Part shown: positions 4,162-37,754 of the stretch, piece after piece | How the letters are laid out: every line of letters begins with the position of its first letter | Numbering within the stretch: position 1 is the first letter of the stretch | Source: Chrysochromulina tobinii | Lineage: Eukaryota | DNA length: 46,023 bases | Reading direction: 5' to 3' | NCBI GenBank assembly: GCA_001275005.1 | Contig: JWZX01003400.1 | Span: 1-46,023 of the forward strand | The notes under the pieces: generated by a model | Seen by the model: only the letters and a program-made list of their open reading frames with translations | Told to the model about the DNA's origin: nothing | Databases searched by the model: none | Position numbers and translations under genes: made by a program

Positions 4162-6925
4162 GGCGGCGAGCTGAAGCCCCCATTCGGGTGAAGCCCGTCC
4201 CCTCCAAACGAGGGATTCCAATCTTCACCACGCCACGAGGTTGTCGATTGACGAAGCAGCTGAGGCGACTTGAGGCTCTCCTGATAGAGCAGCTGGCGCC
4301 CGCGCGCCTGATGAGGGAGCCCATTAGCATGCACACACAGGGATGCGCTCAGGGATGCAATCTGGGATGCAGTCAGAGATGCAAGCAGAAGCTCTCGTGA
4401 TTGCGATCATGATTGCGAGCAGCGGACGCGCGCGCACCGAGCCCGCAGCGATCGCTGCCGTGTGCAGCGAGCGCAGCCGCTCGATCTTCGCATGCAAATG
4501 GTTCGCGTCGGCCTCTCGATCTGCCTTGACTGCGCGCAGCTGCTCACTGAATTGGCTCGCCTGCTGCCGCTTCGCACGCGCCAGCGCCTCGAGACGATCG
4601 CGACTCTCTTTCGCTTCTTCCTCGCGCAGCTTCTGCAGCACGTCCATCTGCATGCGTTGCTCCACGGTGGTAGCCTCATGATGCCTTCGCAGCACCTGAT
4701 GAAGCAGGTCATCAGAGGCCATCAGAGTGGTCATCAAAGGGGGCGTCGCCTCATGGTGCCTTCGCAGCAGCACCTCGAGCTGCCCCTTAAGTTGCTCGAT
4801 TTGGGACTGCGCCTTGGCGGCGTCGTCGCCCATCGCTGTGCGCAGCTCCGAGAGGGTCTGCCGCAGCTCGGCCACCTGATGAGGGAGATCATCAGAGGCA
4901 ACCAGAGAGGTCATCAGAAAGGTCATCAGAGAGGCCATTTGAGAGGTCATCAGAGGGGCATTCGGCTCACCATCGCCTCGAAAACAGTCTTTTGATCAGA
5001 GGTCTCGTCCCTCGATTGACGAAGCTCAGCCTCGACTTTTGTTAGCTTGGAGCGCATGGCACTCGCCTCAGCCACGTACGCCTTCTCCTTCTGGTACCAC
5101 TGCGCGGCGTCCTCGTCGGACCGCTGACGCGCCTCAGCCAGCTCCTTAGTCAGTTGCAGTACCTCCGCGTCCAACCGACGCACCTGTGGGGACGGAGGAG
5201 GGCGAGGCGCCGTGGTGAGCGCATGCATGCACGCAGTACCTCCGCGGCCAACCGACGCGCCTATGGTCGAGCGCAAGTAGGGCCATCTGAGGCGCCGTGG
5301 TGAGCGCATGCATGCGCCTGTGGTCGAGCGCGAGTAGGGCCATCTGGGGCGATCCTATGCAATCTGGGGCGATCTGGGGCGATCTGGAGCGCGAGTAGGG
5401 ACATCTGGGGCGATCCTATGCAATCTGGGGCGATCTGGGGCGATCTGGAGCGCGAGTAGGGCCATCTGGGGCGATCCTATGCAATCAGTACTACGACGGC
5501 GTTCAGGCGGCGACGTCAAGGCGGCGGAAGTAGAGGCGACTCACCGCCGTGAGCCGTTGCCGTTGCAGCTCCTTGGACTCAGCATGCACTCAGCATGCAA
5601 TCAGCATGCAATCAGCATGCACTCAGCAAGCACTCAGCAAGCACTCAGCATGCACTCAGCACGCAATCAGCATGCAATCAGCACGCACTCAGCATGCACT
5701 CAGCATGCACTCAGCATGCACTCAGAGACGCACCGCCGTGAGCCGTTGCAGCTCCTTGGACTCGAGCGCCTCTTGCAGCGTGCGTGCGTGACGAGTGTGC
5801 TCCATCTCGGCGTGATCGAGATCGATGAGGAGCGCCGTCGCGAGCGCCTCCTGCTGTGCTGCCATCTTGGATCCGAGTACGCGCAGCCGTGTGACCCAGC
5901 CGGCCACGTCCGCCTCGTGCGCCTCCCTCGCCGCACTCGCTTCGACCTCAAGCTGCTGGGCTGATGCCATCAGCTTACCGGTCACCTTGGCAATCTGGCT
6001 GCAGATCGTGCGTGCCCGCAGCCTCGCCTCGCGCTCCTGCGAGGGATGCATTCGAGCAGAATTCGTCAGAGTTCGTCAGAATTCGTCAGAATTCGTCAGA
6101 ATTAGTCAGAATTCGTCAGAGTTCGTCGGGCGCCATCGGTCGTCATGCATGCAAAACGGCTGCCACCCATCGCAATCAGTGGCAGTCACGCACCGCAGGA
6201 TTGAAGCCCTTGTCGAGCTGTATGATCGACTCCGCCTGTGCGCGACGCATGTCGGCGCGCGCGCGCACGCAGTTGTTGGCGGCGAGATCGAGGAACTGCC
6301 AGAGCGAGCCCATGGTCGCCTCGCCGCGCTTCGCAAGGCTCTCGGGCTCCGTGGCAGCGAGGATCGCCTCGACAGCCTCGTGAGCCGACTCGCCGCGTCG
6401 CAGGTATGTCGCCACCTGCTCCGACGGGTGGAGCGAGCGCGAAGCCGACTTGACTCGCCAAAGCTCCTCCTCCTGCTTGATGGTGCGCTCGAGCAGAGCG
6501 TGGTTGCGCGCGCGCAGCTCCTCGTTCGCAACCTGCATCGCAGCGAGCTTGTCGGCGGAGACTGGAAGGCCAGGCCCGACGAGGAGCGAGGCCGGTTGTG
6601 AACTGGACCGCGTGAGGCGGCCGCTCGCAAGCGCTGATGCTGGCCGCTCCGGGGTGGAGAACCGCGTGAGGCGGCTGCTCGTCAGCGCTGATGCTGGCCG
6701 CGCCGTGAGAGATGCTCCGGAGCGGCCAGGGGTCCACTCGCCGGGAACCGCGGAGGTGCTTGGCGAGGGCCGTACCTCCTCGCCGAGCATCTCGCTCGCC
6801 ACCTTGTACGCCGCCGGCGTGGAGATCGCCATGAGGTGCGACGGTGCGTAGGGTGAGCCTGGCCGCACAAGCGTCGGCTCAGTCGACGCGGCATGCTCAG
6901 GACGTCGGCAAGGAGATAAACGCAT
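4125..6925 (-). CDS. Coiled-coil protein of unknown function, 6 exons: 6925-6194, 6036-5734, 5183-4971, 4875-4774, 4695-4438, 4307-4125
   Basis: Consecutive E/Q/L/A-rich ORF segments are joined by GT-AG introns, all phase 0, with exon lengths divisible by 3. The start could instead be 6832. Confidence 0.75.
5184..5733 (-). repeat. Intron with two minisatellite blocks, (CTGAGTGCATG)n and (CGCCCCAGAT)n, plus copies of both flanking exon ends
   Basis: Repeats at 5580-5725 and 5341-5485. Exon-end copy with a second donor at 5541-5580. Degenerate exon-start copy at ~5233-5262. Confidence 0.8.
6058..6127 (-). repeat. Intronic 10-nt tandem repeat (CTGACGAATT)n, ~7 copies
   Basis: gaattcgtca units on the + strand inside intron 6037-6193. 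Confidence 0.9.
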
Positions 6926-7100
6926 TGAGAGAGGGAAAAACGTTTCAGAGACGGCCTTTTCCAATCACCTAAAAATGGCGCTTCCCACTTTGCAAACATG
7001 GCCTGTGTCTTCTCACCTCAACCCTTGTAGGCAGTAAGTCCGCTCGCTGATTACGCCCCGATTAACGAACAGGGGGGAACACGTTAATTACTTGTCGGTG

Positions 7101-8171: not shown

Positions 8172-8571
8172 GAATGACTCTGGGGCCGTGAACGCCGGGA
8201 AACATCTCAGCGGATCGTGGGTGAGCACATTCATCAGCTCGATGTCTAGCGAACAGCGAGTGCTCAATGCGTGCGTTCGTGGTCCGTGTTGACAGCGGAA
8301 AGTTATAACGTAATAGTTACGTAAAAGGTAAAAAATTCACATAAATCACTGTCCTTTCCGCCCGCCGGCTCACCTGACACCTCACTCACTCACTCACAAT
8401 AGAATGGTAAAGAAGCTAAGCCCAAGGCACATCCGCCTCTTCCATACAAATACTTGTAGGCGCTTCCAATTGCCACGCACAATGTGACCCGCGATCCTGC
8501 CCAACACGACGCTTTCGAAAAGAACTTGAAATTCTCCACCACCGCTGACGCCGAGAGGTTTGGCATCCAGC

Positions 8572-11524
8572 ATGGCGGCCGGCGCGGGCGACCACTTGAT
8601 GCTCTCGCGGCTTGGCCTCGGCGAGGACAATGCAGAAAAGGCCGGCTCCTCCACCTTGCTGCTGCATGAGAACGTGGTAAGCTTTCTACACCTCCGTAGC
8701 CCGCCGATATTGGCACCTGGCGTTCGCGCCTGCCTGCGGGCCACTGGCGGCTATTGAGCAGCCATCTCGCTCGGGACACCTCGGCCGCGCGATGGGCCGT
8801 TGCCTTGACTCACCGGCCACCCGTGTGCTCCGCTCGCAGGTGAACGCAATCACCTTCTTGAGTAATGGGCTGCTTGCGACCGCCGCCGGCAAGCAAGTCG
8901 CCTTGTGGGACGTCAACGCTTGCACGATTAAGCAGCAGTTGAATCACGAGGGGGCGGTGCGTGTGCTGCACGCGCCGGCGCGCTGCTCCACGGCCCCGCG
9001 CAGCGTCCCACCTGATCGCTGTCGCCGCTCACCCTGAAGTCCTCGCCCTGTGCCGCGCAGGTCAACGCGCTGCAGCTCAACCATGATGGTTCTTTACTGG
9101 CCACGTGCGGCAACGACAAAAAGGTGACGACGTGGTCGATGCCCGATGGGCACAAGGCCAAGGAGCTGCCGCTCGACGGTTGGATCAAGGCCGTCGCCTT
9201 TTCGCGCGGCGGCGAGATGCTTGCCGCGGGCGGCGCGACCTCGGCGGTGCATGTGTGGGATGTGCCCTCGTACGCGCATCGGCACGCGCTGCCGCATGAG
9301 GGGACGGTGAACGCAGTGGCGTTCTCTTCGGACGGGTCCAAGCTGGCGAGCGGCGGAATGGACAAGTGCGTGCGCGTATGGGACACGGCCACAGGCGCGG
9401 CCCTCCACGAGCTCTCGCACGACGAGTACGTGCTTTCCACGAATGTTCCCTGGCGCCTGATGGTCTCCTGATGACGCCTGATGACGCCTGATGACGCCTG
9501 ATGATGCCTGATGATGCCTGATGACGCCTGATGGTCTCCTTCATCAGGTACGTGCTGTCGCTCGCTTTCGCGCCGGCGATGCATCAGGGCACGGGGCTGC
9601 CGATGATCTATCCTCCGATCCTAGCGTCAGGCGGCGGCGACCGGAGAGTCTCGATTTGGAACGTGCAGACTGGGGAGCTTAAGTCCTCTCTGCAGGTGAT
9701 TGCACTTGATTGCACTTGATTGCACTTGATTGCACAGGTCTCGATTTGGAACGTGCAGACTCGGGAGCTTAAGTCCTATCTGCAGGTGGCGGCCTCGCAT
9801 CTCCTCAAAGTGCCTCCCTATTTGCCCCGCCTTGAGTGCCTCTCTCTGATGACTTCTCTGATGACCTCTTTGATGATCTCTTTCTGAGTGCACTTGAGCT
9901 CGAGTGCACCCTACAGCGCGACTCGACCGTCTACGCGCTGCGCTTCTCGCCGGCCGGAGACCTTCTCGCCTCGGGCGGCGGCGACAAGCAGGTGTCGCTC
10001 TGGTCTCGCCACGGCCGGCTGCTCTCTGAGTCACCGGCGCTCGACGGCGCGATCAAGGCGCTCGGCTTCTCGGCATCGGGCACCGACGTGGCATGCGCCT
10101 CGGGGAAGGAGGTGCGATCTCAAGGACTGAGGATTGCCTCTTGATGACCTCTTGATGACCTCTTGATGACCTCTGATGACCTCTGATGGCCACCTTTATC
10201 AGGTGCGGCTGTACACTATCTCGGTCGACACGGGCACCGGCGAGGCACGTCTCAAGCCGCACATGAATGAGGAGATGAGCCGCATCGTCAACCTTCCCTT
10301 GCTGCGCGCGACCAAAGAAGGCGACCTTGAGACAGTAGATCATCTTCTCGAGGTGGGCATGGTCGACATCAACTTTCCAAACCAACACGGCGACACGCCC
10401 CTTATCCTCGCGTGCTGGTACGGGCACAAGTACATCACCGCGCGACTGCTTGACAATGGCGCGCTACTCAACCTCACCAACTGCGACGGCAACTGCGCCC
10501 TCAACGTGGCCGCGTACCGAGGCAACGCGGAGGCGGTCGAGATGCTGCTGCGTCACAAAGCCACTGTTGACGTGCCCGATAACATGACTGGCAAGACCGC
10601 GCTCGTCAAGGCGGCGTACGTGGGGCACACGCCGACCGCGATCAACCTGCTCGACGCCAAGGCGAATGTGAACCATGCGGACACGCAGGGGTACACCGCA
10701 CTCGCGTTCGCCACGTCCTTCAACCACGAGTACATGCTGCAGGTGCGCCCATGCAAACTGATGCCTGCTGATGACGGCTGATGACGGCTGATGACGGCTG
10801 ATGACGGCTGATGACGGCTGCAGGTGCTCCTACACCCACTGATGGCCGCTGATGGCCGCTGATGACTGCTGATGACCGCTGGTGACTGCGGCAGGTGCTC
10901 CTACACTCGGGAGCGGACCCGAATCTGCAGGACGTCTTCGGTATCACGCCGCTCATCCACGCCGCCGCGCGGGGCCGTCTTGAGACAGTACAACTGCTGC
11001 TGCAGCATGGCGCGCGACCGCTGCTGGTCGACTCGGAGGGGAAGACGGCGCTCGACTATGCCGAGAGCGCCAACTTCCAGGAGATTGCGAGCGAGCTGCG
11101 CGATGCTGCCAGGCTCTCGGACTCGATGCCGCCCTCGCCCTCTGTGAGCATGGGAGCCGCCATGGGCGGCATGGGCTTCAGCGCCGATGGGTCGCCGACG
11201 ACGCCGCGCATGACGCCACGCGCGCCCATGGCCCACGACATCCGCAACGGCATCCTGACGCCGCGCGTGCCAAAATCGGGGGGGGGCGACATGACCGCCC
11301 GTCGGCTCTCTTCGGAGAGTCCCCTCGGCTCCCTCGGCTCCCAACCTCGCTCGCCCTCCATTATGAAGGAGCAGCTCTCTCCGTTGCCCCGCGACACGCT
11401 CACCTCGCTCTCGAAGAAGCTCGTGCATCTGTCCATCATGCTCGAGCAAGACACGGTGCTCTCAGACACCTCATACCCCTCCTTCCAGCTCGACAGCGGA
11501 CGGAAGAGCTACCGCCGACGCTGA
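8572..11524 (+). CDS. WD40-repeat plus ankyrin-repeat protein, 7 exons: 8572-8676, 8840-8956, 9061-9425, 9548-9695, 9917-10111, 10203-10742, 10895-11524
   Basis: WD40 repeats (HEGTVNAVAFSSDGSKLASGGMDKCVRVWD) are followed by ankyrin repeats (GDTPLILACWYGH, GKTALVKAAYVGH, GITPLIHAAARG). GT-AG junctions give one continuous frame. Confidence 0.85.
9457..9538 (+). repeat. Intronic 10-nt tandem repeat (CTGATGACGC)n
   Basis: Read directly inside intron 9426-9547. Confidence 0.9.
10768..10886 (+). repeat. Intronic 10-nt tandem repeat (CTGATGACGG)n interrupted by a copy of the acceptor and exon start
   Basis: gcaggtgctcctacac at 10820-10835 duplicates 10891-10906. Confidence 0.9.
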
Positions 11525-11566
11525 GGGGCCGACGCTCAACCGCTCGCCCTCGCTCGCATCGTGCGC

Positions 11567-12254: not shown

Positions 12255-15200
12255 TCATGAGAGCACGCACGCCTTCGACTTAGGGTTCTCTTCCTGACGC
12301 TCCGTGGGCGGCGCGCCGGAGCTTTGCGCGCCACTCAGCTGGTTGCGCAGCCCCTTGATCCGGAGCTTGGCGATCTCGTCCTTGAGCTTGGCGATCTCGT
12401 CTGAGCTCGCGGCCGATGCGCCTGCTTGTACCCGGAGCTTGTCCTTGAGCTTGGCGATCTCGTCCTTGAGCTTGGCGATCTCGGCTGAAGCATCCCGAGC
12501 CGCGCCGTTGGCAATGCGCCATTCGAGCTCAAGATGCTCGACCTGCCTCTTCGAGGCCGCTAGCTCCGACATTAGCTGCAATTCGTCCGACATTAGCTCC
12601 GACATTAGCGGCATTAGCTGCAATTCGTTCGAAATTGCCTGCTCCAACGCGGGCATTGCCTGCTCCAACGGCAAGAGGGCGACGAGAGATGCCTCATCTC
12701 CTGCCTTGCTCGCTGTCCCTGGAACAAAACTGCTCTGCATCACAAGATCAAGAAGGTCTTGCTTCTCGACTGCACCTTCACAGGCCACCTTTCGCTCGCG
12801 CAGGATGGCCTTGAGCTCCGAGACCTTGAGCCTCGATGGGTCCATTGATGGGTCGATGGCACCCAAGGCGCCAGGATGAACGGCGGCGCCCATCTGTAAA
12901 TGTGAATGTGTCGCCTCCTTCACCTCCGCCACCTGAGTCACGGCCGCGCGCAGCTGCTCATTCGACTTGGTCAACGAGCCACGCAGCTGCTCGTTCTGGC
13001 GCTTCTCATCTTCAAGCTTCCGCTGCAGCTCGGCGATCACGTCGGGCGGCGGTGCCGTTGGCGGCGGCGGCGGGGCAGCGGCGGCGACGGCTAGCAGGTG
13101 GTCCGCACTCGAAGCAGCTCTGCGCTCGCCCTGCGCAGCGATCGTCTTGGCTTGCTTGAGCTCGAGCGCAAGGTCGTCGACCTTCGCACGCAGCTCCCGG
13201 TTCGTCAATCGGAGAGCCTCGAGCTGCGGGTCGATCTCGCCAGCGAGCTCCGCGCGTGCGAAGCTCGCGATCGAGTCGCGCTGCTCCTGAAGCTCTTCGA
13301 TGACTGCATGCAGCACGGTCGGGTCTTGTTGCACGTCCGCCTTCTTGTCCGCAGCGCTCACCTGCCGCTTGCAATCGTCCGGTATGCCCGCGTGCCCATA
13401 GACGATGGGCTCGGCCGTCGCGCGGCTGACGAACCCGTCGAGCGCCGTCTTGGGCATTGCATGCAGCGACGAGCCCTGCACCGGGCTTGCATGCATCGGC
13501 TTCTCCGAGTAGAGCAGCAGCCTGACCGCCGTGTCGCGCACGGGCTCCTGCCGCTGGTTGATGCATCGGGTCGTCATCGTGTACGTCGTGCCCGCTGTGA
13601 AGAGCACGGGGAGCACCGCCTGCTGCTGTGAATACTTTTGGAGCATCTTGTGCGGGACGCGATCGAGCTCGGTGGCAATCGAGCAGAACGCGTCGGGCGC
13701 GTCGGACTCCATCACGAGCGCCGCCTGCACCGCCTCCACGCCGCCGCCACGAAAAAACGACCGTGCGCTCGGCCCCTCGGCGCCCATGCTCGGAGATTGG
13801 ATCTCGATCGGAGATTCGATCTCGAGCTGGGTGAGGCCGTGCTCGTCTGTCCGGCCTTCGAGGGCGATCAGGTGCCATTCGTTGGCCATCCCGAGCGGGG
13901 TGCAGCTCACGTTCGCCGCGGCATCCGGAGGCGTATAGAATGCGAGGCGTAGCGGCACCTGAGAAGGGAGGCACTCACTTAGTGGTCAATCAGTGGTCAA
14001 TCAGTGGTCCCTCAGTGGTCACTCAGTGGTCACTCAGCGGCCAATGAGTGGTCCATGAGTTGTCACCAGAGGCGTCGTAGCGGGCGGTGCACCTCGTGGT
14101 TGGTGCCTTCGGCCATGACTGCGAGGATCGAGTACACGCCGCCGGGAGCGAGGGTCCACCGAGCCGAGACGCACCATGCATTTGTCACGACCGAGTGCGC
14201 GACATACTCCTCCACATAGGGGGAGAGCACGCCCACGTACCTGTGGGGAAGTGGATGGGGGCGTCGTAACGAGCACTTGCATGCACGAGGGGGAGAGCAC
14301 CGCCCACGTACCGACGGTCAGGCACAGTCGACTTCATGACGTACAGCGAGAGGAGCGGATACTCGTCGGCGCCGAGCCCATTGGGCGCGTCGGTGGTCGT
14401 CGTGTGACGCTGATTGCGAAGCTTGTCGCGCTCGCCATACGAGAGGAACACGTTCATCGGCACCGGCTGCTCGCCCACGTTGACCATCTGGAACTGCGGG
14501 CAGTTGCGCCAGTGCGCGTCGGCGATGCCACGTGGCGCCGAGCAGAGTTTCGTCCAACTGTGGAAACAGGAGGGGCGTGGGAAGGCGATCCAGTGCGATC
14601 GAGTGCAATCAAGTGCGATCAAGTGCACTCGAGAGCAATCAAGTGCAATCAATTGGAATCAAGTGTATTGTAGAGCAATCCATAGCAATCGAGAGTAATC
14701 AAGTGTAATCAGGAGCCATCCAGTGTAATCCAGTGTAATCAAGTGTAATCCAGCAGTCATCGCCCACCTCGAGGTGAGCATGCGCTTGTCCCATGGCAGG
14801 AGAGTAATCAAGTGTAATCAAGTGTAATCAAGTGTAATCAAGTGTAATCACCTCGAGGTGAGCATGCGCTTGTCCCATGGCAGGAGAGTAATCAAGTGTA
14901 ATCAAGTGTAATCAAGTGTAATCACCTCGAGGTGAGCATGCGCTTGTCCCATGGCAGGAGCATCTGCTCGAGGGACACGGGCTGGTCGGCGAAGGCGCTG
15001 AGCACAAAGCGAGCATGCTGATGCGAGCAGCCGACGTGCGGCACGACGATCCACGCGTCCTCGAGTGTACTCTGTCGCACATGGCAGCGCAGCACCACCT
15101 CCCGGGTCTTGGACACATCGAGCGCGGCCTGCACGTCCGGTTCGAGCATGAGCACGCCGCTCTCGTCCTTGAGTGAGGCAGGCCGCGCGCCGCTCGCGTT

Positions 15201-18200
15201 GATGTCGAGCTGCGTCAAGCGCGTCGCGAGCGTCTCTGCGGACGCGGCCACGACACACAGCCGAAGAAAGATGGGACGTTGCTTCACGCGCGCTTGCTCT
15301 CGCGCCGCCTCGTCGACGTCCTGAAGGACCAGGCACACGTTCGCACCCTTGGGCGCGCGCAGCAAGAACTGCGGGTTGTCGACGAAGCTCGCATGCTTGC
15401 GGTCGCCGCCCGCGTTGCCATCGGTCCACTCAGCGGCGATCGCCGAGCCCCAAAAGCGAAAGTCCGCAGAGCCGGCGAGGCTTGAGGACGTCTGCTGATT
15501 GCGCTGCATCGACGAGGAGAGAGCCCGCGCCATCGAGGCGAGCAGTTCGAATCGGATCAACTCGTACCGTGCATTCTGCTCGAGCGTGCTCAGTAGCGAC
15601 GGCACCTGCAAGCAAGAGGCCAGATGGCCATCAGAGGGCAATCAGAGGGCCATCAGAGGCCCATCCGAGGGCCATCAGATGGCAATCAGATGGCAATCAG
15701 AGGGCCATCAGATGTCCAGTCGAGGGCCATCCGAGGGCCATCCGAGGGCCATCCGAGGGCAAGCCGAGTGCCAACCGCAATCAGCGAGCGGCACCTCGGA
15801 GATGAGATTCGCAATCAGCGAGCGGCACCTCGGAGATGAGATTGACGAGCGCGAGTGCCGCGAGCTCGGCGATCTGACCGTCGTGCATCTGCGCGAAGAG
15901 AAGCCCCGAATAGGCGCTGATCGCCTCGTACCTCTGCAGCTCCTGCTGGATGCCCGTGTTGCTCTGCGTCATGCGCCCTAGCAGCTGCAGCGTCTCCTTG
16001 ATCAGGTACTCGTCGTGCTTGGGCGAGAGGAACGAGAGGAGCAGCGGCACACCCTGCTGCGCTCGCAACAGATCCTTAAATGGATCGAAGTCGTGCGCGA
16101 GCTCGGCCATGGCCGCCACTACGACGCGCTGCAGCCGCTGACGTGGCATCGCGTGCTGGCTGGTCTCGTGGAGCACTTGGTACACGAGGGCCGAGATGCC
16201 CTGCTCGAGGCCATCAGAGGGCATTACAGGGGATTGGAGGCCATCAGCTCGAGGCCATCAGAGGGCATTAGAGGTCATCACAGGGGATTCGAGTCCATCA
16301 GTCGCAATCAAGTGCTGCCTCACCTGCTCAAGTAATCAAGAGCAATCAAGCGCAATCAAGCGCAATCCAGAGCAATCCAGAGCAATCAAGGGCAATCAAG
16401 TGCTGCCTCACCTGCTCGAAGCATGCCTGGCGGGTCGTTGGGGAGTCTTGGGCGGCCGCGGCGATGGCGACGCACGCATTCTCCTTGTCGTCTGGGTCGG
16501 CACTTTGGAGCAGCGCTGAGAGATATTGCAGCCTCACCTGCGAGAGATATTAGCACTTAGAGACATTAGCACTTAGAGATATGAGCTCTTAGAGATATGA
16601 GCTCTTAGAGATATGAGCTCTTAGGAGCAGTGCAGAGAGAGATCGCAGCCTCACCTCTCCCTCCGCGTTCGTCCCCATCGAGTACTCGATGAAGAGCGAT
16701 CGCCCACGCGCATCAAGCACGCAGGGCAGCGTGCGCGCCACAATGGTCGCATAGGGCGCATTCTGGCCGCGCGGCCGAAGATAGTCGACCATCCGCTGTA
16801 CCCCCTGCAGTCGCAGGCACCCGGGGGTAGGGGGTGAGTGTGCAATCAAGTGCAATCGAGTGCAATTGAGTGCAATCAAGGCAGATCGCACCTGCATCTC
16901 TTGGAAGAGAGTGCGGTTCGCTCCCTCGAGGTCGGTTAAGGCTCGCAGGTCGTTGCATGCAGAGAGGGCCGGTAAAGTCTCGAGGATCCGGCTGACGGCC
17001 GCCATGTCTCCGCGCCGCCCGCGCTTGGCGTGCCGTGCGAGCCGTGCCTCCGCCATCGAGATCATCACCTGATGCGGAGGGGGGGGATGCGGAGGAGGGG
17101 GTGGAGGCAATCCGCGGCGATCCGCGGCGATCAGAGGTCCTCGGAGATGCGCACCTCCGCGGTCTCATAGGGCAATCAAGCGCAATCCAGTGCAATCAAG
17201 TAGTCCTCGCCCACCTCCGCGGTCTCATAGGGCATCCCGCCGCCTGCCTCGCCCTTGAGCCGCTCTCGCAACCTCACGGTAGGCGCCTCCGCAGCGGCGC
17301 GAGCGTCCGACTCCACCGCCATTGTCGCCAGCTGCGCTCGCATCTTCTCGAGCTCGGCCTCGAGATTTGATCTCGTCACCTCGAGCTCGGCCTCCTGCCG
17401 CTGCTGCAGCTCGATGGCCGCGCGCGCCTCCTGCTGCAGACTCTCGAGGGCCCCCTTTGAACTTCCCGCCTCCGCCTCTCGGCGCCGTCGCTCCTCCTCG
17501 CGCTCGTCGTTCGCACGCTGCGCCGCCAGCAGCTGTGCCTCGAGCTGTGCCTCGAGGGCAGCTGCTCGGTCCTCAAGTTCACGCCGCTTGCGTGCCTCTT
17601 CCTCCTCCACCTCGGCCCGGATGCGATCCGCCTCGGCAGCGGCAGCGCCGTCGGCGCCCTTCAGACGCTCCTGCAGCCTGCGCTCAATCTCCGCCTGCAT
17701 CTCGATCTCGGTCTCGATGGCCCGAATGTCCTGCTCGGCAGATGACGAAGATCATCAGTGGCCATCAAGGGCCATCAAGGGCCATAAGGGACAATCAGGG
17801 GCAATCAAGGGCGCGCACCTGCTCGTTCTCGGCCACGGCCTTGATGCGCTCGAGCGCGCGCGCACGCCTCTGAGCCTCGATGGCCTCGGCGCGATCCTGC
17901 ACGGAGAGCCCGGCGAGGGCAGACGACGAAGCTCATCAGCGGCGGTCATCAAGAGCAATCAAGGGCAATCAAGGGCAATCCAGATCAATGAAGGGCAATC
18001 AAGGGCAATCAAGATCAATTAAGGGCACGCACCTGCCCGGAGAGCCCAGTCATCAAGAGCAATCAAGGGCAATCAAGATCAATGAAGGGCACGCACCTGC
18101 CCGGAGAGGTCATCAAGAGCAATCAAGGGCAATCAAGGGCCATCCAGATCAATTAAGGGCACGCACCTGCCCGGAGAGGTCATCAAGAGCAATCAAGGGC

Positions 18201-19888
18201 AATCAAGATCAATGAAGGGCACGCACCTGCCCGGAGAGGTCATCAAGGGCAATCAAGGGCAATCCAGATCAATGAAGGGCACGCACCTGCCCGGAGAGCC
18301 CAGCGAGGGCTGCCTCGTCGAGCGCGCCACCGTCGCCCTTGCCGTCACGAGCCTCGGCTTCCAGAGTCAGTCGCTCCGCGCGCTTCGCCGTCAGCTGTGC
18401 TTGGAGTGCCTCGATCTCGCCTGCCGCCTCCTTGAGATCGTCCGAGAGAGCTTCCTTGTTCACCTCGATGTACTTGGCGATCAGGAACGTTGGTACCTCC
18501 GTCGGCGCCGCGCCCTTATCCTGCCATCAGAGGCGAGAAGAGGCATTCAGTGGCACACGGTGGCACACGGTGGCACTCAGTGGCACTCAGCGGCACTTAG
18601 AGCTCAATCGCGCAGAGGCGCTCACCTTGGCGCGCTCAAGCTCGAGCTTCAGATTCTCGTTCTCGCCCTGCAGATCGGCAATCTCCTGGAGCTGCTCGGC
18701 GATCACCGCGCGCATCTCCGCCTGCTCCTTCTCGAGCTTGTTGGTGGACGGGTTGACGGACATGGAGAGGCAGCTCTGGCCGAAGCGCAAGCACGCCGTG
18801 CCCTCGGCCACCTGCTCGCGAGAGTTCGAGAGTGCAATCAGAGGCAATCAGAGGCAATCAGAGGCAATCAGAGGCAATCAGAGGCCATCAGAGGCAATCA
18901 GAGGATGCACCTGCTCGCGAGAGTTCGAGAGCGCGAGGATGATGTGAAGCATGTTGCTCCCACCCAGACCCTTTGCGAGCATCATCGTGAGTTTCGACTC
19001 CCTATACGGAATATGCGTCGCGCCTTCGGCGAGGCACTTGACGGTGAGCGCGAGCTTGCATAGCGACAGGTTGATCTTGATACCCTCCTTGGCGTTCTGC
19101 CCCTCGGCGCCGCTCTTCTTGAGACCTTCGGAGCCGGCAAGGTCGACTAGGTTGACAACCCCGAACGACTTGCCTTTCTGCTCGGTCCAGTTGACGCTGA
19201 TCTGGAGCAGCGCGTGCGAGCGGGAGGAGGCCTCGTTCATCTTGGTCGCCGCCGTTGCGCGCATCGCGCACCCCTGCTCGTACACGCGCTGCGCCTCGAG
19301 CGCATCCTTGCACACGTGGCGCACAGCGTCCTTGCACTGGTAGCCCCCACTCGGGTCCATCGAGACGTCGACGACCTTACGCTTGCCGAGCAGGTCCTGA
19401 GGCTGCTCATTGTAGAGCTCGATGAACTGGAGGCTCATCTCGAAGCTCTTGATCGTCTCGTCGCTCCTGAACTTGATGAAGATCTGCTCGAAGAGCCGCG
19501 GGATGAGCCCCGGCTGCGTGTACCGGCCAGTGTCCTTGTCCTTGGCGCCCTCCATGGAAAAGGTCTTCCCGCTGCCGGTCTGCCCGTACGCGAGGATGGT
19601 CGAATTGAAGCCCTGACGAAGCGAGCTCAGCGCCACCTCGCCGATCGTCGTGAAGACCTCCTCCTGCTTCGAGTCCATGCCGAAGACCTTGTCGAACGTG
19701 AAGCGCGAGATGTCGGACGTCTCCTCCTTGCGGTAGTCGAGCGATGTGCCGTCGACGACCGTGAAGAGCTCCGGCTGGCCCGCGTCGCGCCCGAACATTG
19801 GGCGGAGCCGCGCGTACACGCGCGGCCGGGTGGCCTTGCCCTTGGTGGAGGCGGCCATCGCACCTTGCCACTTAGAGGAGGCGGCCAT
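12255..19888 (-). CDS. Kinesin motor - coiled coil - armadillo-like repeats - calpain domain III-like - coiled coil - CaaX protein (~1864 aa). 13 exons: 19888-18911, 18811-18626, 18520-18287, 17896-17819, 17730-17215, 17068-16892, 16804-16655, 16537-16412, 16200-15829, 15605-14926, 14557-14312, 14240-14093, 13958-12255
   Basis: Kinesin motifs RVYARLRP, FTFDKVF, AYGQTGSGKTFSM, NEASSRSH, LVDLAGSE and HIPYRESKLT. ARM-like helices. WTDGNAGG...FVDNPQF and WRNCPQF resemble calpain domain III. C-terminus is CVLS. All 12 GT-AG junctions are phase-consistent with no stop between exons. Confidence 0.82.
14558..14925 (-). repeat. Intron of (CTTGATTACA)/(CTTGATTGCA) repeats with two extra 38-nt copies of the exon end plus donor
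   Basis: cacctcgaggtgagcatgcgcttgtcccatggcaggag at 14765-14802, 14849-14886 and 14923-14960. Confidence 0.9.
17897..18286 (-). repeat. Intron built of 60-70 nt higher-order units, each containing (CTTGATTGCC)n and a copy of the CAG|GTGCGT junction
   Basis: aagggcacgcacctgcccggagag at 18021, 18085, 18155, 18215 and 18275. Confidence 0.9.
18809..18931 (-). repeat. Intron 18812-18910: 24-nt perfect direct repeat of the junction flanking (CTCTGATTGC)n
   Basis: cacctgctcgcgagagttcgagag at 18809-18832 and 18908-18931. Confidence 0.92.
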
Positions 19889-25699: not shown

Positions 25700-28230
25700 A
25701 TGCTGCTCCTCTCGGTCCTATGTATCGCTGCCATCATGACCGGCACCGGCACGCCTGGTGCTGTCGAGCCTCCGGCTGAGTGGCTGGCGGAGATCGCGCG
25801 TTCCAACTACCTATACTCGCCGAATGACGCGCTCATCAAGGACAATCTCAAGGCTACGATTGGCAACGGCCAGCTCGCGACGCAGATCGACGCCAACGCT
25901 CTCTACATTGCCGGCGTCTTCAACGGCCCCGCCGCCAAGCCCTTTTCCGACCGTGCCTCTGCCGCCGCTGATGACGACGTGTCGCACCGCGCGACGGTCA
26001 CGTCGCCTCTCAACGTACAATGCGCCGAGTCGATGACAGCCCGTTTCAAGCCAGCGGGCGCGGCGCTCGACCTGCGTGGGGCTCGCTACCTGCGCCGGAG
26101 CACAGCAGCGGACGGTAGCGGTGGCATAATCGAGCAACGCTTCTTCGCACACCGCACGGAGCGCGGCCTTCTTGTGCTCGAGCTCGCAAACGTGGGCTCC
26201 GCGCCGATCACCTGCACACTCGTCGGCGGCCTCGCGGCCGGCGTCAAGAGCCGCATCGACACGAAAGACATTGCCTTTGGCTTACGCAGCGCGAATGTGA
26301 AGCTGCCAGGGGGGTCAGGCACTGCGAATGTGACAGTGATGAGCGGTCGAACGCGCGTGTCGGAGACGGCGCAGACGCCCACCGTGCTCGTGGCGCTCGC
26401 CGTGACGGCTATGGACGAGATCAGCCCCATCGTACTGCCCCCAGGCGCCACGCGCACGCTCTTGGCGAGCGTCGCCACGTCCATCGACACTGCAGATCCG
26501 GAGGCGGCGGCGCTCGCCGCGTATGGCGCGGCTGCGGCGCTGCCAACGGGCGCGCTCGCAACGTCTTCCGCGAAGGCATGGGCACAGCTGTGGGAATCGG
26601 GCGTGGCATTCGAGGGGCGCCCCGATGTGGCCGTCGCCGTCAACGCGTCTCTCTATTACCTTCTCTCATCGGTGTGCAGTGTGAAGAGGATGCTCGATTC
26701 TGAGTGCCACTGCCACTGAGTAGCCACTGTGTCAGTACCACTGAGTGCCACTGAGTGCCACTGAGTGCCACTGAGTGCCACTGAGTGCCACTGAGTGCCA
26801 CTGAGTGCCACTGTGTCAGTGCCACTGAGTGTTGCTGGGTGCGACGAGATCGCCCCGCATGGCAGGTGCGGGAGGAGGTTCGCTTTTCGCTCTCGCCGGG
26901 CGGGCTGGCCTCCAACGGGTACTATGGGCGCCTCTGAGTGCATCTGAGTGCATCTGATTGTCTGATGACCGCTGATGGCCTTCTCAGGTATAATGGGCAC
27001 TCGTTCTGGGACTGTGAGACTTGGATGTTCCCTACGCTGCTCGCGTGGCATCCGAGCATCGCCCAGTCGCTGCTTGAGTACCGCGTCGAACGACTGCCTC
27101 TCGCGCGCGCCAAGGCGAAGTCGTACAAGCCGCCGTATGCGGGCGCAATGTTCCCATGGGAGAGCGCCGTATCGGGCGCGGAGACGTGCCCGTCGTGGGC
27201 GGACACGGGGCAGCTCGAGCAGCACATCACCGGCGACGTCGCCTTCGCCGCCCGCCAGTTCTTTGCAATGACGCGCAACGCGACCTGGGCCAATAGCAGC
27301 GGCTTCGACCTTGCTAGTGGCGCTGCGGACTTTTGGGTCTCGCGCGTCGAGTTGAACGCCACCGACGGCCTCGCACACATCAAGCACGTCATCCCGCCCG
27401 ACGAGTATGCCACCGGTGATGACTCCGTCTACACGAATTGTGTTGCGGCAGAGAGCCTTCGCCTAGCGGCCGCATGGGCGGCGCGTTTCGGCAGGATGGC
27501 CGACCCTCGGTGGGCCGCGATCGCTGACAAGATTCCAATCTTGTGGGACGCGGCGCGCGGGTACCACCCGGAGTACGCAGGGTACACAATCGGCACCCAG
27601 ATCAAGCAGGCGGACGTCGTGTTGCTCGCCTACCCTCTGATGCTCAACATGAGTGATGCGGTACGGCAAGCCGACTTGGCGGCTTATGAGTCAGCGACCG
27701 ACCCCAACGGCCCCGCGATGACGTGGGCGATGCATGCGATTGGGCATCTCGACAACGGCCGGCCGGACCTCGCCGCGAGCCTGTTCAACCGCTCGTTTGC
27801 CAACGTGCAGATGCCCTTCGCCGTATGGACGGAAACGCCTCAGGGAGGCACGACCAACCTCTTGACAGGTGCGGGCGGCTTTCTGCAGGGCGTCCTCATG
27901 GGCTATGCCGGGCTCCGGATTCATGACGAGTACCTCACCCTCCGACCGGCTCTCATCGAAGGGACCCAATCCGTGGCTGTGCGTGGGCTGCGCTACCGCG
28001 GTGCGACGATACACGCCCAGTACGACGCTGCGACCCTCACACTCACCCTTGCGGCCGTCGCCTCCGATGGCGATCATCTCTCCGTCCTCGATGAGCTCAC
28101 CGGTAGCTCCATGGCGCTCTTCTGCTGTGACTCAGTGGCACTCCCACTGGCGGGGGGCGTGCATGTCTTTGAGCTGCGCATCTCTCCTTCGGCTCTTCCA
28201 GTGCATAGGCTCGGGCCGTGGCTATCCTAG
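25700..28230 (+). CDS. Secreted glycoside hydrolase family 65 (PGGHG / acid trehalase-like), 3 exons: 25700-26671, 26866-26918, 26988-28230
   Basis: Signal peptide. Motifs SLSPGGL, GYNGHSFWDCETWMFP, GAMFPWES, EQHITGDVA, VIPPDEY, IKQADVVLL and LTGAGGFLQ. Confidence 0.9.
26700..26830 (+). repeat. Intronic 10-nt tandem repeat (CTGAGTGCCA)n
   Basis: Read directly inside intron 26672-26865. Confidence 0.92.
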
Positions 28231-29477: not shown

Positions 29478-30058
29478 ACGTGGGTTGTGGCCAGCCAGTC
29501 ACAGTCATTAAGTCGCCGGGCGTATAGTGAATTCGTAGGTCGCGGTGACGGTAGGAACGGGAGCTCCGCGGACGGAGCGGACGGTGTCCTCTCCGGCGAC
29601 GCACCGGAGAGTGTGCTCACAGTGCCCGCGCTCACCAGTGCCCCGGTGCTTACTTACTGTGCTTTCTGCTTACACGTTACAGCGTCGAGCGTGCCCGCGC
29701 TCACCAGCTGCAGCTCCACATAGAGCACTACCAGCACCGCACTAGTCTTCATACTTCATACTTCAAACAGGGAAATGGCGCTCCATATCACATCTTACGA
29801 CGGCACGCCTTTCGATCCGGGGATTCAGGTGTGAAATACACCAATAACGTCAATAACCGCGGACTTCGCCGGACCTTCCAGGTCTGAAAAGGCGGAAAAG
29901 CGGGTCCTGGCAAAATGGGCTCCCTCCCTGACAGCCTGGACCTGGGCGCGGCGGCGCTCCCTCGAGCGGCGGCGCTCCCTCGAGCTAGGCCACCCACGGG
30001 CACCTCGCTCTTGCGGCGGCCGAGCGCCGACGCCTTCCATCGGCCCGTGCAGTCTACC

Positions 30059-31935
30059 ATGAAGCGACGAGGCTTGGCTGGAGACGAAGAGGAGGTCTTC
30101 CTGATGGACATCGATGAGCCTGAGCGGGCGGCGTCCGCCTTGCCCACCTCGGCACCGAGCACCGAGCGACCGCTCAAGCTTTCGCACACCGCGTCGCCGC
30201 GCTTGAAGGGCTTTGCACCTGCAATCCCCAGCCGAGCGGCCAGCGCCAGCAGTTGGAGCTCAGCTCGGGCCACACACATACCAGAGCTGCCTGCGCGTGC
30301 GAGTGCGCGCCAGCGGTCGAATCGAACGCTGGCCCTCCTGTGGCCGTGGCGCACACGACGCAGGATCCTGCAAAGGAGGGCTCTGCGCCGCCCGCGTGCC
30401 AGCCTGCGCTGCGGCCTCAGCCGCCCTGCGATGCCCTGCCATGGAAGGCCGCCTAGTGTGTGGGGCCGCCCACCCCCCAGCGCGCGCCCGCGCGCCCGCC
30501 CCCTCCTTCCCTGCTTGATCGTTCGCGCTCGCCTACGCGTGCCCTCCTTCCCTCCCGAGCAGAGACCCACGACGGGCGGAGCATTTCGTCGACGTCCTCG
30601 GCGACGAGCGCAGGCATCGTCAAGAAGCCTCACCGCATGGCGAGCGCGAGTGGACTGATGGAGCGCGGCACGAAGAGCATGCCCTCGTCGCCACGCCTCG
30701 GCCCCCTTATCGGTCCTCTCGCGCCGCCCGCCTCGCCGATGCTCGCTGGACTCACCCCGATGTGCTCACCCATGATGAGAGGTCTCGCGATGGGGTGCAG
30801 CCTCGTGAGTAGCGCCGCTTCGTCCATGGGATGCGCGGCGGGCAGCATGCTGGTGCCTCTCGAGGCGGACCTGCAGCCGCAGGCCATGCAGCGTGCTCAC
30901 GAGTTCCGCGAGGGCCGGCGCGTCTTCCATGTACACTTTGGGCACGGGTTCGTCAAATCGCTCGAGGCGGAGCCGGCCGCCGCTGCGGCGGACGGCAGCG
31001 GCAGCGCTCCGCAGCCTGAGCGCATCGTCACGTACGACTCACAGCGGACGCACAACATCAACCTGGTCTTCGACGCGCCGAAGTATAAGGACCGGCCACA
31101 GCGGCTTCGCGCCTATTACGCCGTGCCCAAAATGGTCGTCATTCCTTCAACCGCGGCGCTGCGCAGGCAGAAGCTGCTCTCGTTAATGGATCTGACGCCG
31201 CCGAGCGAGCCGCAGCGCGTGGGGCTCGTGCGCTCGCTGCTCGCCTCCAACCAGCTGCGCGCTGCGTGCGTGCTCGTCTCACGCTGGAAGCTGCACGCCC
31301 ACTTCGAGCCGTCGCAGCTGCTCGAGCACCTCGTGAACGCCAAGATGTTCTCGGCCGCGATGCGCTTCGCGCGCGAGTTCGGGCTGAGCGCGACGGAGCC
31401 GTACACGGAGGCGAGCCTGTACCGCAAAATGCTCCACGAGCGCCAGTTCGAGGGGCCACTCAAGCACGCGGGCGCCAAGCGCGCCAGCATCGACGGAGTG
31501 CATACCCCCGACGATGTGCTCCGGCTGCTCGTTGGTGCGGGCCATCACGCCATCGCGCTCAAGTACGTGCATAAATTTGGTGCGAGCGAGCGCTTTCCGC
31601 CGCAGCAGCTCGTGTCGAGCTGCTTGGAGGCCGAAGGCAAGTGGACGGTGCAGACGTGCGGCTTGCTGCTCAAGTACGTCAAGGTCTTCGGCCTCGAGAC
31701 TCTCTATCCCATCAAGGAGCTTCTGGATCGTGTGGAACGTTGCGGCGTCACCGTGCACGACGTCGATGGCAAGTACGTGCTCAAAGGAAGGCGCAGGGCG
31801 GCCGCGACAGTCCCGGGCACGCCGCAGGCGATCGGCGGCGCGCCGCCGTTTACGAGCGCTGACTGGGGCAGCAGTAGCCTGGGCACCTCGCCGCCGCTGC
31901 CCTCCGTCATCCTGGGCTCGTCGGCGCCGTCGTGA
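30059..31935 (+). CDS. Protein with a low-complexity N-terminus, a Tudor/SH3-like motif and FRIGIDA/EXD3-like helical repeats; 5' part unresolved
   Basis: Frame 30460-31935 is well supported (GRRVFHVHFGHGFVKSLE; LVGAGHHAIALKYVHKFGASERFPPQQLV). The upstream segment from ATG 30059 is in a different frame and the junction is not resolved. Alternative start at 30637. Confidence 0.6.
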
Positions 31936-32730: not shown

Positions 32731-33562
32731 TCAGGCGCGGGAATCAGGCATGGCTTCGCTGCCATCGTGCTCCTCGCCGCTCGCAAGCTCGTCCTCGGAG
32801 AGCTGGGGCGACGAGCGCCATGATGAGCGCGCGAGCGGGCTGCCTCGGCGAGAGAGTGCACGCGAACGGCCCGTGCCGCTCTCCGGCGAGCGTTGGAAGA
32901 GTTCGTGTGGTTGCGGCTGACGGACCGCGTCGCTCTTGCGCACGTCGAGCACGCAGTCGCCGATGCGGGAGCGCTGTTCGATCAGCTCGACGGCGCTCGC
33001 GTGGTCGCGAACGGGAATGCCATCGACGGCAAGTATCACGTCGCCCGCCCGCACACCTGATTGGTGAGCGCCGTTCCCGCGCACGACTTGGAGGACGAGC
33101 ACGCCGTCGCCCAGGTACGTGTTCTTGAGGACAAGGCCCGCGGGCCACTCGATCCTGACGGGGACTCTCAGGCCCAAAGGCATCGCCGCCGTTGAGTGGA
33201 CCTCGTCCATCACAGTCATCGCCTTCTGTGTGATCTCCGCGCCGCACAGAGACGCATACTCGAGATCTACCGTGATGGCCCAGACTGGTGAACGGCAAGT
33301 CGGACACGAGGACCGGCGACGTGCCCATTCCTCGTAGCACGACAGGCAGAAGTGATGGTAGCTACCAAACGAGAGGGACGGGCACAAGGCGCGCGCTCGT
33401 GGGTTGGGGAAGTGCGCCATGCACATGGCGTCGGGGAGCGTGCTGCGCGTACCATGCGCCGCCAATGGATGGGTCGCGCATTGGAGCCGCGCAGATTGCG
33501 CAATCGATGACCTCTGCGCGCGTCGATCGGGCACGTTGCGGCGAAGCAGGCGCAACATCCAT
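32731..33562 (-). CDS. RING finger plus PDZ domain protein, 2 exons: 33562-33453, 33361-32731
   Basis: Splicing intron 33362-33452 creates CAIC...GGACYHHFCLSC...CPTC (C3HC4). PDZ motif GVLVLQVVRGNGAHQSGVRAGDVILAVDG. Confidence 0.85.
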
Positions 33563-33894
33563 TGTTCGCGAAGGCGGGGTCAGCACGTCAAAGTGCTCGG
33601 CTATAAGTGCGGGAGCGCACGCTCTCGCCCCCTTTCCCCACAGGTTTGGGGAGCCCGTGCCAAGCCTGGTCCTCCGTCGCACCTCCAAGCGTGCGAGTGG
33701 GGGAAAACCTTCGCAGTGCGCGTCGTTGTTGTGCATGTACATAGTCATGACAACCAGGTCCCCCTCTCCCCGCCCCTTGCCGATAGCAGGCTGAGTCGGC
33801 CACACCTCCGTCCATTGCGAAAGAGGCCCTCGTTCTTGGGGTTCCGGAGAGTGGGTGCGTTTTCGTGTTCACAGAAGCGACAAACTCGTCGCAG

Positions 33895-34758: not shown

Positions 34759-35422
34759 AGCGGCACTGCGCGGCCCTATGTGGCACGGCCCGTGTCACGG
34801 CTCGGGGGGCGCCGTGGCCACGTGGCCAGAGGAGGAGCGTGGCCACGTGGCCAGAGGAGGAGCGAGCGCCATTGGCGCCTCGTAGTACGCTTTTGTGGTG
34901 CAGACGGTCGGACCGTACGGTCGCTATGGTCGGAGCAGACATGCACATGGGCAGTCATCGTGCATTCGTGCACATCTCACGAGCCGCGCCCCGCTAGCCC
35001 GCGCGTGTGCCGCCGACCGGGCCCCCGTTTTAGTACGGTGTTTTGTCAGTGTTCCAAGCGAGCGTGAGCTCGCGCTGTCGGCCCGTTCGCAAATAGTTAA
35101 AAGACAGCGCGCAGCGACCGTACCGTGTGAGCGCCGCGCCGGCGCCCCAACGCAATCCAAGCCCCAGCGCCGGCGCGCGGACCCGGACTCGACTCGCACC
35201 GACCGACACCCGGACACCGCTGGCTGCCAGCGCGCTGCGCGGCAGCGGGCCGGGCGCGTTATATCCGTTGGATGGGCGGTAGCGAAGCCGGGTACCCCAG
35301 CAACTCCCCGACGCCCGAGGCCGCCGGGCGGGGACGCTCATACAACTCCCTCCAGCAGTAGGCGTCGGGCGCGGCCGGGCGGCCTCGCCTGGCGCGGCCC
35401 CATCCCCCCACCGGCGACCCCG

Positions 35423-35484
35423 AGCCCAGGTAGAGCCCAGGTAGAGCCCAGGTAGAGCCCAGGTAGAGCCCAGGTAGAGCCCAG
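35423..35484. repeat. 11-nt tandem repeat (agagcccaggt) x5-6
   Basis: Read directly. Lies outside any confident CDS. Confidence 0.9.
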
Positions 35485-35686
35485 GCCGACGCCGAGAAAC
35501 GCACCGTCCCTCTAGGCCGCTACTCCGAAACCGAATTCGACACTTGCGCTACGTCGCCGTAGGGGCAAAGGCTATGTACAAATGAAGACACCCGGAATCG
35601 CCAAACCGGGGTGGAAGCAAAGCAAGGCTTCAAGCAACCTTGTGCAGCATGCCACACGCGCCATGTTGAGCATGCTAGCCGCGTCG

Positions 35687-37754
35687 CTAGTCCATGCAGG
35701 GCAGCTCATCGTGGTTGAGGACGGGCAGTGGGAAGAAGAGAGCGAGCCACCCGAGCCAGCGAGGCGGCGGCGGTAGCAGCGCGATCTCATCGGCGTCGCA
35801 TGCCGAGCCTCCAATACTTCCAAGATTGAGCCCGAGATTTACCCCGAGATTGAGCCCGAGGAGAGCCCCGCCGAATGGCGCGAGAAGAGCCCTCACCGAA
35901 GTCGCGCCGTCGTGAGCGCCGTCGACTAGGCACCGACGCCCGCCGCGGCCGTCCTCGCTCAGGCTGATGCGAGGTCCACTCGCGTTCGCGCGCCACGCAT
36001 TGTCGCCGAGCGCGCCGGGCAGGCGCACGTAGGTCAGCGTGAATGGCTCCTGTGCCCCCCGTGCAATCTGGAGCAATCTGCGCAACTCGAGAGCCGGCAC
36101 GGTGAAGGACACAAATGGTGTGCCACTGGCCGCGTCCCACCGGGGCATGTGGGCGGAGACCTCGTGCCCAAAGACGTGGCGGACTGTCGGGTTGATTTGG
36201 CGGCCACATTCCAATCAGCATTGCAATCAGCATTGCAATCAGCATTGCAATCAGCATTGCAATCAGCATTGCAATCAGCATTCCAATCAGCATTGCAATC
36301 AGCATTGCAATCAGCATTGCAATCAGCATTGCAATCAGCATGCAATCAGCATGCAATCAGCATGCAATCAACGTACCTGTCGGGTTGAATTGGCGGCCGA
36401 TGTGCCCCGACCGTTGGAGAAGCTCGCGCACCCTTGGCGACAGCTCAGTGGTCACCTCCGCGGGTGCTAACGCGTTCAGAGGCGCCGAACTCGACGCCTC
36501 GACGCGCACCACGCCACCGCCGAAGCCATCCTTGAGTCCGTCCGCCCCCAGCAATGCCTCCGCAACGCGCCCAAGCACCTGGGCGGCCGGCGACGCGCTG
36601 GCCGGTTCGGCAGCATACGCTTGCAGCAGCCCCGTCGGCAGCACCCAGTGGTTCGAGCCGCCGTGGACTCGAATTGAGGAGAAGGGGTACGCGGCGCCAA
36701 CATCGATCAGGCCGACCACCGGCCCGAGGAAGGCATAGGCGAACGCAATGAGCAGAGCGAGCACCCCGGCGGCGACGGAGAGTGCGTTCAGGTAGCGTCG
36801 CTCGCGCGGCAACGGCAAGCCCGAAAACTGCTCGCCGTAAGGCAAGAAGCATTTGGCTGAGCGGCAGTCGATGACGAGCGCGCGCGCGACGATGAAGAGG
36901 AGGCCAACGTAGAGGATGATCGCCCAGTCGACGCTCACGCCCGGGGTCGAGGTGAGGCGCGCGGAGGCGGCGGTGCACGCGACGGCCACGGCACGGTAGG
37001 CGAGGCCCGCGCCGGTGCTCGGCAGCACGGAGGTCGCCTCGGCCTGCGCGGCGGCCCACGACGGCGCGAGGACGTAAAACATCCGAGAGAGGCCAAAGGC
37101 GGAGAAGGAGGCGATCTGGTTGGGAAAGGGCGTGAGGGTGATTCCGAGGTGCAGCACGGCGCAGAGCAGCACGCCCATGCGCCGCGCCGCGCGGAACGGC
37201 AGCAGCAGCAGCGCGCCGATCGCCATCTCGCCCACGATCGTCATCCAGGGCGCACCGACGGCGAGCGCGTGCACGAGCGGCGGCGGCAGCGCGCCCTCTG
37301 GCAGGTACGCGGCCAGTGAGAGCGTGAAGATGGGCGCGCACGAGACGGTCCAGTCCAGGAAGGAGGTGTTGATCTTCCAAAAGCCCGCCGCTAGGTAGAA
37401 GAGCCCCATCTGCGTCCTCACGACCCACTCGACGGCCGGCACGACCGCGCGTCGCGGCACCAGGAGAATGGCCGCCAGGAGCACCGCGTCCGTTTGCATG
37501 GCCCAGTGCGCCGAGTCGAAGATGCAGGGCATCTTGCAGGCGATGAGGTAGATGTGCAGGGCGAGCGCCGCGCCAAAGGTGCGCTTCGAGGGCAGGAGGC
37601 ACGTGAGCGTCACGAGTGGAAGCCACGCCGCCGCGGCGTACGTACCGTCGGGCACGTAGTTGGGTTGCATGATGGTGAGGGTCACCTCCACGACCGCCCA
37701 CAGCTGCGCAAACGAGGCGAACAGGTCGATCGCGGTGTCGATGGCGTCAGTCAT
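35687..37754 (-). CDS. HTTM-domain-like multi-pass membrane protein, 2 exons: 37754-36377, 36183-35687
   Basis: RTQMGLFYLAAGFWKIN and GEMAIGALLL...RRMG...LHLGI match the HTTM/DoxX-like pattern. A phase-1 GT-AG intron gives FNPTVRHVFG. Confidence 0.72.
36184..36398 (-). repeat. Intron 36184-36376: (CTGATTGCAATG)n filler between two copies of the exon 3' end
   Basis: 36184-36205 matches 36377-36398 at 21/22 nt. Confidence 0.92.

Follow-up and report, generated by a model that had tools for sequence, protein, structure and literature searches.

The exon duplications that border introns in a contig of the haptophyte Chrysochromulina tobinii point to a likely recent gain of introns, in which a segment of exon at the junction is duplicated and the space between the two copies is taken up by repeat-bearing filler. 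We analysed positions 1 to 46,023 of contig JWZX01003400.1 (assembly GCA_001275005.1), a stretch called the window here, which has a GC content of 63.2% (63.4% is reported for Chrysochromulina tobin) and abundant 10-12-nt minisatellites. Recent gain is supported because near-identical alleles in two lineages differ in their introns and because 12 of 13 intron positions of the window's lineage are without an intron wherever a distant DNA locus covers them. Since near-identical relatives differ by whole introns with this duplication-plus-filler build, the formation of introns is probably ongoing. Gain of some kind, by repair or by a retro or mobile route, is well supported; that the introns are made by repair of staggered breaks or nicks, with exon duplication and a templated filler, is the reading we favour, with somewhat more confidence than doubt. 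The initial annotation of this stretch had proposed gain by junction duplication. Recent gain through duplication and repeat filler is supported, and four points needed correction: existing introns are struck as well, the position of the showcase intron is shared, fillers have sequence in common, and a precedent exists in Daphnia.

Gene models were built by coordinates for six genes, and two further introns were taken from RNA alone, giving a set of 29 introns; the segments 36050-36100 (read in frame) and 35809-35896 and a possible intron near 3990-4150 (both with uncertain boundaries) stand outside this count. Every interval listed in the initial annotation corresponds to a GT-AG intron whose removal keeps a long open frame. 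The gene at 12255-19888 on the minus strand, in which a kinesin motor and coiled coil are fused to a calpain domain III region (Pfam), has 12 GT-AG introns and a spliced product of 1864 amino acids with no internal stop; the model stays in step with 18 orthologues, several of them full-length, and a named orthologue exists in Prymnesium parvum. The models of the coiled-coil, WD40-ankyrin, MFS, GH65 and 36-37-kb genes also read through. Introns are strongly biased to phase 0 (10 of the 12 in the kinesin gene) and AG/GT sites are favoured (5 of the 12), and sites without AG/GT exist, at the 36184 intron and at the site of a 37-nt copy described below.

Each junction was scored by an anchored alignment of intron end to exon flank and compared with 812 cross-intron pairs per side, a null that thus keeps the splice consensus. 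In type A, the 3' end of the intron copies the upstream exon end and supplies the AG; in type B, the 5' end copies the downstream exon start and supplies the GT. An anchored exon copy was found at p ≤ 0.01 in 11 of the 29 introns against about 0.6 expected, four of type A and seven of type B, and no intron (0/29) has both ends copied. Copies measure 7-38 nt and fillers 47-543 nt. The junction duplications reported earlier were largely borne out, as nine of the eleven introns (18812, 17897, 36184, 16201, 16538, 4696, 14241, 9426 and 15606) reach p ≤ 0.005; the other two, 17731-17818 and 26919-26987, fall short of the 0.01 threshold.

The type A introns lie on the minus strand. Intron 18812-18910 has a 24-nt perfect repeat across the junction (21+3 nt) and a filler of 10-nt minisatellite; 17897-18286 matches at 22 of 24 positions and repeats exon end plus donor four times internally; 36184-36376 (21/22) is filled by an 11-12-nt minisatellite; and 16201-16411 matches at 10 of 11 positions. 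The weak type A match of 17731-17818 on the same strand spans 7 nt (p = 0.017). Type B introns on the minus strand are 16538-16654 (32/38), 14241-14311 (23 nt plus a 1-nt insert), 15606-15828 (11 nt plus a 1-nt insert, with an internal copy of the 5' junction), 4696-4773 (24 of 26 with a short insert) and, beyond those first listed, 4308-4437 of the coiled-coil gene (17/21); 9426-9547 of the WD40-ankyrin gene (11/12) is on the plus strand. The composite intron 5184-5733 (minus strand) is borderline in the anchored test (7 nt, p = 0.010) and contains internal copies of both junctions, one of 28/30 and one of 36 nt with a 6-nt stutter. A weak type B match (9/11, p = 0.026) is present in 26919-26987 of the GH65 gene (plus strand), and 13959-14092 (minus strand) has a stutter-like start resembling the next exon that is non-significant in the anchored test. 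The copies had been described as an age series running from perfect to decayed, which is partly right; several deviate by small inserts and not by substitutions, and these inserts may date from the birth of the copy.

Splicing is seen in RNA contigs for 15 of the 29 introns, including 6 of the 11 first listed (18812, 17897, 17731, 16538, 14241 and 26919), so that the check proposed in the initial annotation gave a positive answer for these. In four RNA runs, contigs skip 16805-16891, 17069-17214, 18521-18625, 18812-18910, 26672-26865 and 30303-30562 in all four, 17731-17818 and 26919-26987 in three, 16538-16654 and 33362-33452 in two, and 17897-18286 and 20985-21156 in one. Intron 14241-14311 is skipped in three runs, and 14558-14925 and 13959-14092 are bridged by contiguous record coordinates. 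The joints listed are the best-supported ones, and the unlisted introns 4696, 9426, 15606, 16201 and 36184 carry no evidence against splicing; their basis is frame continuity, joined by orthologue alignment for 15606 and 16201.

The comparison among close relatives comes from one metagenome scan, which gave 19 loci (L001 to L019). Excluded from the presence/absence calls were L006-L008, which are the window's own sequence (at least 99.97% identity), L001-L004 and L011, which look like transcript contigs, and L019, which has no match; L013, with a frame switch, counts as weak support only. Of 821 exon sites in the kinesin gene, 10-15 differ between the window and L014, L015 or L016, and 30 between the window and L005. 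At a site that is empty in the window (approximately 15035-15110, minus strand), L014, L015 and L016 carry a type A intron of 91-113 nt in which a donor is followed by a minisatellite and this by 37 nt copied from the exon end (37/37, 36/37 and 35/37). The sister comparison called for at the outset thus finds relatives of about 99% identity with a whole intron that the window lacks. It is also missing in L005, L012, L017 and L018, and it is limited to the window's lineage whichever the direction of change. The exon at this site is not AG/GT, so the donor comes from the filler. L005 further lacks 15606-15828 and 13959-14092 and keeps two other introns.

In more distant loci (L009/L010, L017 and L018, at about 50-60% protein identity), introns are predicted at 10 mapped positions, and open frames remain after their removal. 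Several of them open with sequence of the next exon (copies of up to 25/25) and have a filler of CCCTAA-type repeats, which are the telomere motif of Phaeocystis globosa according to passages of PMC11347835. Identity between L017 and L018 is 99.7% across 1841 nt, and each has one predicted GT-AG intron that is missing in the other; these reciprocal introns have 25/25 and 23/24 copies, a duplication of 24-25 nt, together with telomere-type repeats. Type B introns filled with telomere repeats are predicted at 1873-1937 and 1056-1195 of L017, 903-975 of L018 and 2435-2570 of L009. G-rich and then C-rich repeats stand head to head in L017 1056-1195 and L018 903-975, the arrangement that extension of both broken ends would produce. 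The kinesin gene of L012 (13.8 kb) is in one uninterrupted piece, and the genes of orthologous proteins on 14-18-kb contigs may be intronless. At the site of the L017 intron with the 25-nt copy (1873-1937), L009/L010 have a shorter exon-like stretch followed by a different repeat unit and seem to hold an intron, either a parallel gain or a rewritten one. Scans of viral and prokaryote collections found no relatives of the kinesin gene and no matches to the donor-plus-minisatellite, two common 3'-end and telomeric acceptor patterns, and in four freshwater or unlabelled DNA runs 0.00-0.01 of the words were present.

The reading we favour can be set out as a series of steps. A staggered break or nick pair in an exon would be repaired with a target duplication of 7-38 nt, the chosen route being end-joining with templated synthesis. 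Before joining, filler would be synthesised by copying repeat-bearing intron DNA; in a second haptophyte lineage the filler is a telomere-type repeat. Of the two splice sites, the duplicated edge would supply the AG in type A and the GT in type B; the filler would supply the other, along with a branch-point-like repeat on the sense strand, and selection would retain the products that can be spliced. The minisatellite core is on the sense strand in 17 of the 29 introns and on the antisense strand in one. Long direct repeats would permit exact loss again, a step suggested by a single base. The same event also hits existing junctions and stacks copies within old introns, as is seen in the older intron 14558-14925 (minus strand), whose length is 368 nt in the window against 191-201 nt in four sister loci. 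Part of this difference is made up by two extra stacked units of exon end, donor and the intron's own local minisatellite; the stacking is found in the window only, so the process also acts on old junctions. We infer that filler is copied because a local repeat is reused in 14558-14925, because the neighbouring introns 17897 and 17731 share about 20 nt before the copy, because some 3' ends are held in common, because sequences overlap by 3-6 nt at those filler-to-copy joints that were inspected by eye, and because the inserts are stutter-like.

Several observations weigh against recent gain by this route. No significant anchored copy is found in 18 of the 29 introns, and the presence/absence evidence comes from one gene. 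The one close outgroup, L005, may itself be a contig of RNA spliced in part; its three absences would then carry no weight. The window exon has a G at the 37-nt site, the base in the intron copies of L015 and L016, and the sister exons have a C; because its exon shares this derived G, the window may once have carried the intron and lost it through a deletion from one repeat to the other. The predicted L017 introns 321-504, 682-893 and 1056-1195 need GC or GA donors, which come from the duplication. The initial annotation had held that conserved positions in distant haptophytes would argue for secondary slippage; 12 of 13 positions proved lineage-specific, and the showcase intron 18812-18910 did not, as it shares position and phase with an intron of L009, the one of ten distant positions common to the window. 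The chance of a shared position is about 0.4 (introns occupy 5 of 21 phase-0 AG/GT sites, and such sites account for 2 of the 10 distant positions). Parallel gain is a plausible account on this analysis; the intron may also be an old one whose end was rewritten. Internal junction copies occur in 7 of the 29 introns against 1 of 812 null pairs, a sign that existing introns are rewritten too, and common 3' ends also fit a mobile family.

These common ends bear on an RNA-templated spread, in which a LINE-type endonuclease and reverse transcriptase would prime at a nick, take as template an intron already excised or a short non-autonomous element, and produce a long target duplication of variable length, giving introner-like gain. 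LINE insertion by target priming leaves a fixed 3' end and a variable 5' end, and type B has this geometry, its fixed 3' end lying at the start of the duplication; type A would require internal priming. An ATCAG 3' end is found in 6 of the 29 introns, two of which have a 12-nt suffix in common, and an ACCAG end in 7 of the 11 distant introns listed. Introns 5184-5733 and 14241-14311, which belong to different genes, have a non-minisatellite 3' end in common (35 of 46 aligned bases, or 38 of 46 for L015, both counted by eye), yet this pair ranks just 7th of 406 3'-end pairs. Common ends could also be selected splice signals. Within this set of 29 introns, likeness is limited to repeat units and some 3' ends. 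Filler lengths and units differ, the stacked copies of 14558-14925 use a local repeat, and no element open reading frame was seen in the window. We regard this route as unlikely. The earlier statement that no shared transposon sequence is needed was nevertheless too strong, given the ATCAG ends and the one 3' end held in common across genes.

Secondary rewriting would make the introns old, with one intron end overwritten by exon sequence through template switching from one similar junction to the other or through partial conversion by spliced cDNA, and the empty alleles would be losses. The internal copies speak for it: beside those already described, 17069-17214 (minus strand) has a stacked type A unit with a perfect internal 23-nt copy of exon end plus donor, in 9696-9916 (plus strand) exon end plus donor recur internally at 46/48, and 10743-10894 (plus strand) has an internal copy of acceptor plus exon start. 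So do the derived stacking in 14558-14925, the position that 18812-18910 shares with L009, the common G at the 37-nt site and the apparent L009/L010 intron at the L017 1873-1937 site. The restriction of positions to lineages (12 of 13 in the window's lineage, 9 of 10 in distant loci) and the intronless L012 count against it, and L017 1873-1937 and L018 903-975 consist of copy and telomeric repeat only, with no remnant of an old intron. Nor are copies homogenised with exons: the copy of 16538-16654 is identical in L014, where the exon has diverged, and in L005 the copy of 14241-14311 is likewise out of step. As a general account, rewriting seems to us rather improbable. The proposal of gain is thereby qualified and not replaced, in that the process strikes existing introns in addition to making new ones.

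Minisatellites disturb assembly, and every assembly compared consists of contigs whose origin is short-read or unknown. Assembly artefact, a worry raised from the start, or chance likeness at repetitive introns is nevertheless extremely improbable: anchored scores reach 23 against a cross-intron null maximum of 10.5, independent sister loci hold the same copies with mutations of their own, and segments skipped in RNA are kept in a DNA run, which has none of three spliced joints listed for RNA (0/3) and one contig covering 12807-14794. Two further models were rejected. Pure tandem duplication does not fit 0/29 introns with both ends copied and fillers of 47-543 nt, and a MITE with a fixed duplication does not fit copies of 7-38 nt and fillers without terminal inverted repeats (0 of 11 above the 95th null percentile).

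Known systems offer partial parallels, described here as passages of the cited papers present them. In Daphnia pulex, intron gain by staggered breaks left 33 junction repeats of 4-12 bp, with parallel gains at one site in 43 of 90 cases, population presence/absence and later internal repeats (PMC4202315); break-repair gain is therefore not confined to isolated cases, as had been supposed. The window resembles Daphnia in the exon-edge direct repeat at the new intron's far end, here well above background (11/29 against about 0.6), in presence/absence and in later internal repeats. As to polarity, polymorphism is present and positions favour gain, with one site a possible re-loss and L005 possibly RNA. 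Unlike in Daphnia, copies are 7-38 nt long, fillers are minisatellite or telomeric, and whole-junction copies are stacked. Introners that take one splice site from a target duplication are known in Polarella (classes 4, 5, 6, 8, 10 and 14) and as a pattern in Aureococcus; they have fixed 3-8-nt duplications, full-length family similarity and often terminal inverted repeats (bioRxiv 10.1101/2020.10.14.339549; PMC11282704). The window introns likewise take one splice site from the duplication (four type A, seven type B) and the other from the insert, and share the phase-0 bias, whereas their duplications vary in length, inverted termini are absent and likeness is confined to repeat units and some 3' ends. 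In the tandem-duplication model of Rogers, a segment containing AGGT is duplicated, and the intron is wholly exon-derived with both ends copied (PMC3443670). Splice sites from duplicated exon and the preference for AG/GT agree with it; mostly foreign filler, the 0/29 with both ends copied and sites without AG/GT do not.

Short interstitial telomeric sequences insert at staggered breaks with target duplication, in mammals at 3 of 66 loci and with no human exon case (passages of PMC7215372), and the haptophyte Calcidiscus leptoporus has pervasive interstitial telomeric tracts (passages of PMC13518057). L009, L017 and L018 resemble these insertions in their telomere-type repeats and target duplication, which are polymorphic and sometimes head to head. 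Repeats with a duplication at an otherwise empty orthologous site were found in L017 and L018 and not in the window, whose fillers are non-telomeric 10-12-nt minisatellites. Unlike the mammalian insertions as reported there, the insert in L009, L017 and L018 is itself the predicted intron.

Other features of the window deserve mention. An in-frame 180-nt piece of the last kinesin exon (12689-12868, minus strand) has an ARMET_C Pfam match and is missing in sister L016; it may be coding sequence that was captured from a different gene. RNA contigs from three runs end at 12790. Adjoining the intron-rich genes, 37395-43961 (plus strand) is an open frame of 2188 codons with kinase and U-box domains that needs no intron. 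At 4094-4159, close to the end of the coiled-coil gene, a 28-nt direct repeat flanks a 10-nt spacer, which combines duplication and filler at a length that would not allow splicing, and more short tandem or spaced duplications lie outside the studied introns at 41218-41386, 44741-45245, 29948-29985 and 34813-34864.

What is new is that the duplications are long and variable, that they are frequent and that the filler is minisatellite or telomeric. A full-text literature search found no such account for haptophytes, with many subscription papers outside its coverage and haptophyte introner lists possibly standing in supplements. The Emiliania genome paper is said to report 10-11-nt intron repeats, which were found neither by this search nor in passages of PMC2784329. 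The pattern is not described in the passages available from PMC12480563, PMC11347835, PMC10288648, PMC12130899, PMC4580454 and PMC8226300, and the main text of PMC12130899, in those passages, does not mention haptophytes. More tentatively, and as a possibility short of an expectation, haptophytes may run a transposon-free intron factory, in which long-overhang breaks would be healed by simple repeats, duplicating 10-40 nt of exon and making an intron in one step. The repeats would be telomerase-type, sometimes at both ends, in one lineage and minisatellite-bearing intron ends here, and exact loss would lead to turnover within populations.

A transposon-free origin of spliceosomal introns is a long-standing open question, because the majority of gains have left nothing legible behind. 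The introns analysed here do carry such a trace: perfect copies reach 37 nt, copies occur in 11 of 29 introns, and alleles of 99-99.7% identity are polymorphic for them, so that existing genomes and metagenomes can show what the template is, in which direction change runs and how fast introns are gained and lost. If insertion of telomere repeats makes introns in the second lineage, telomere-type repair would be tied to gene architecture, and telomeric intron making could explain the interstitial telomeric tracts that passages of PMC13518057 describe in Calcidiscus leptoporus.

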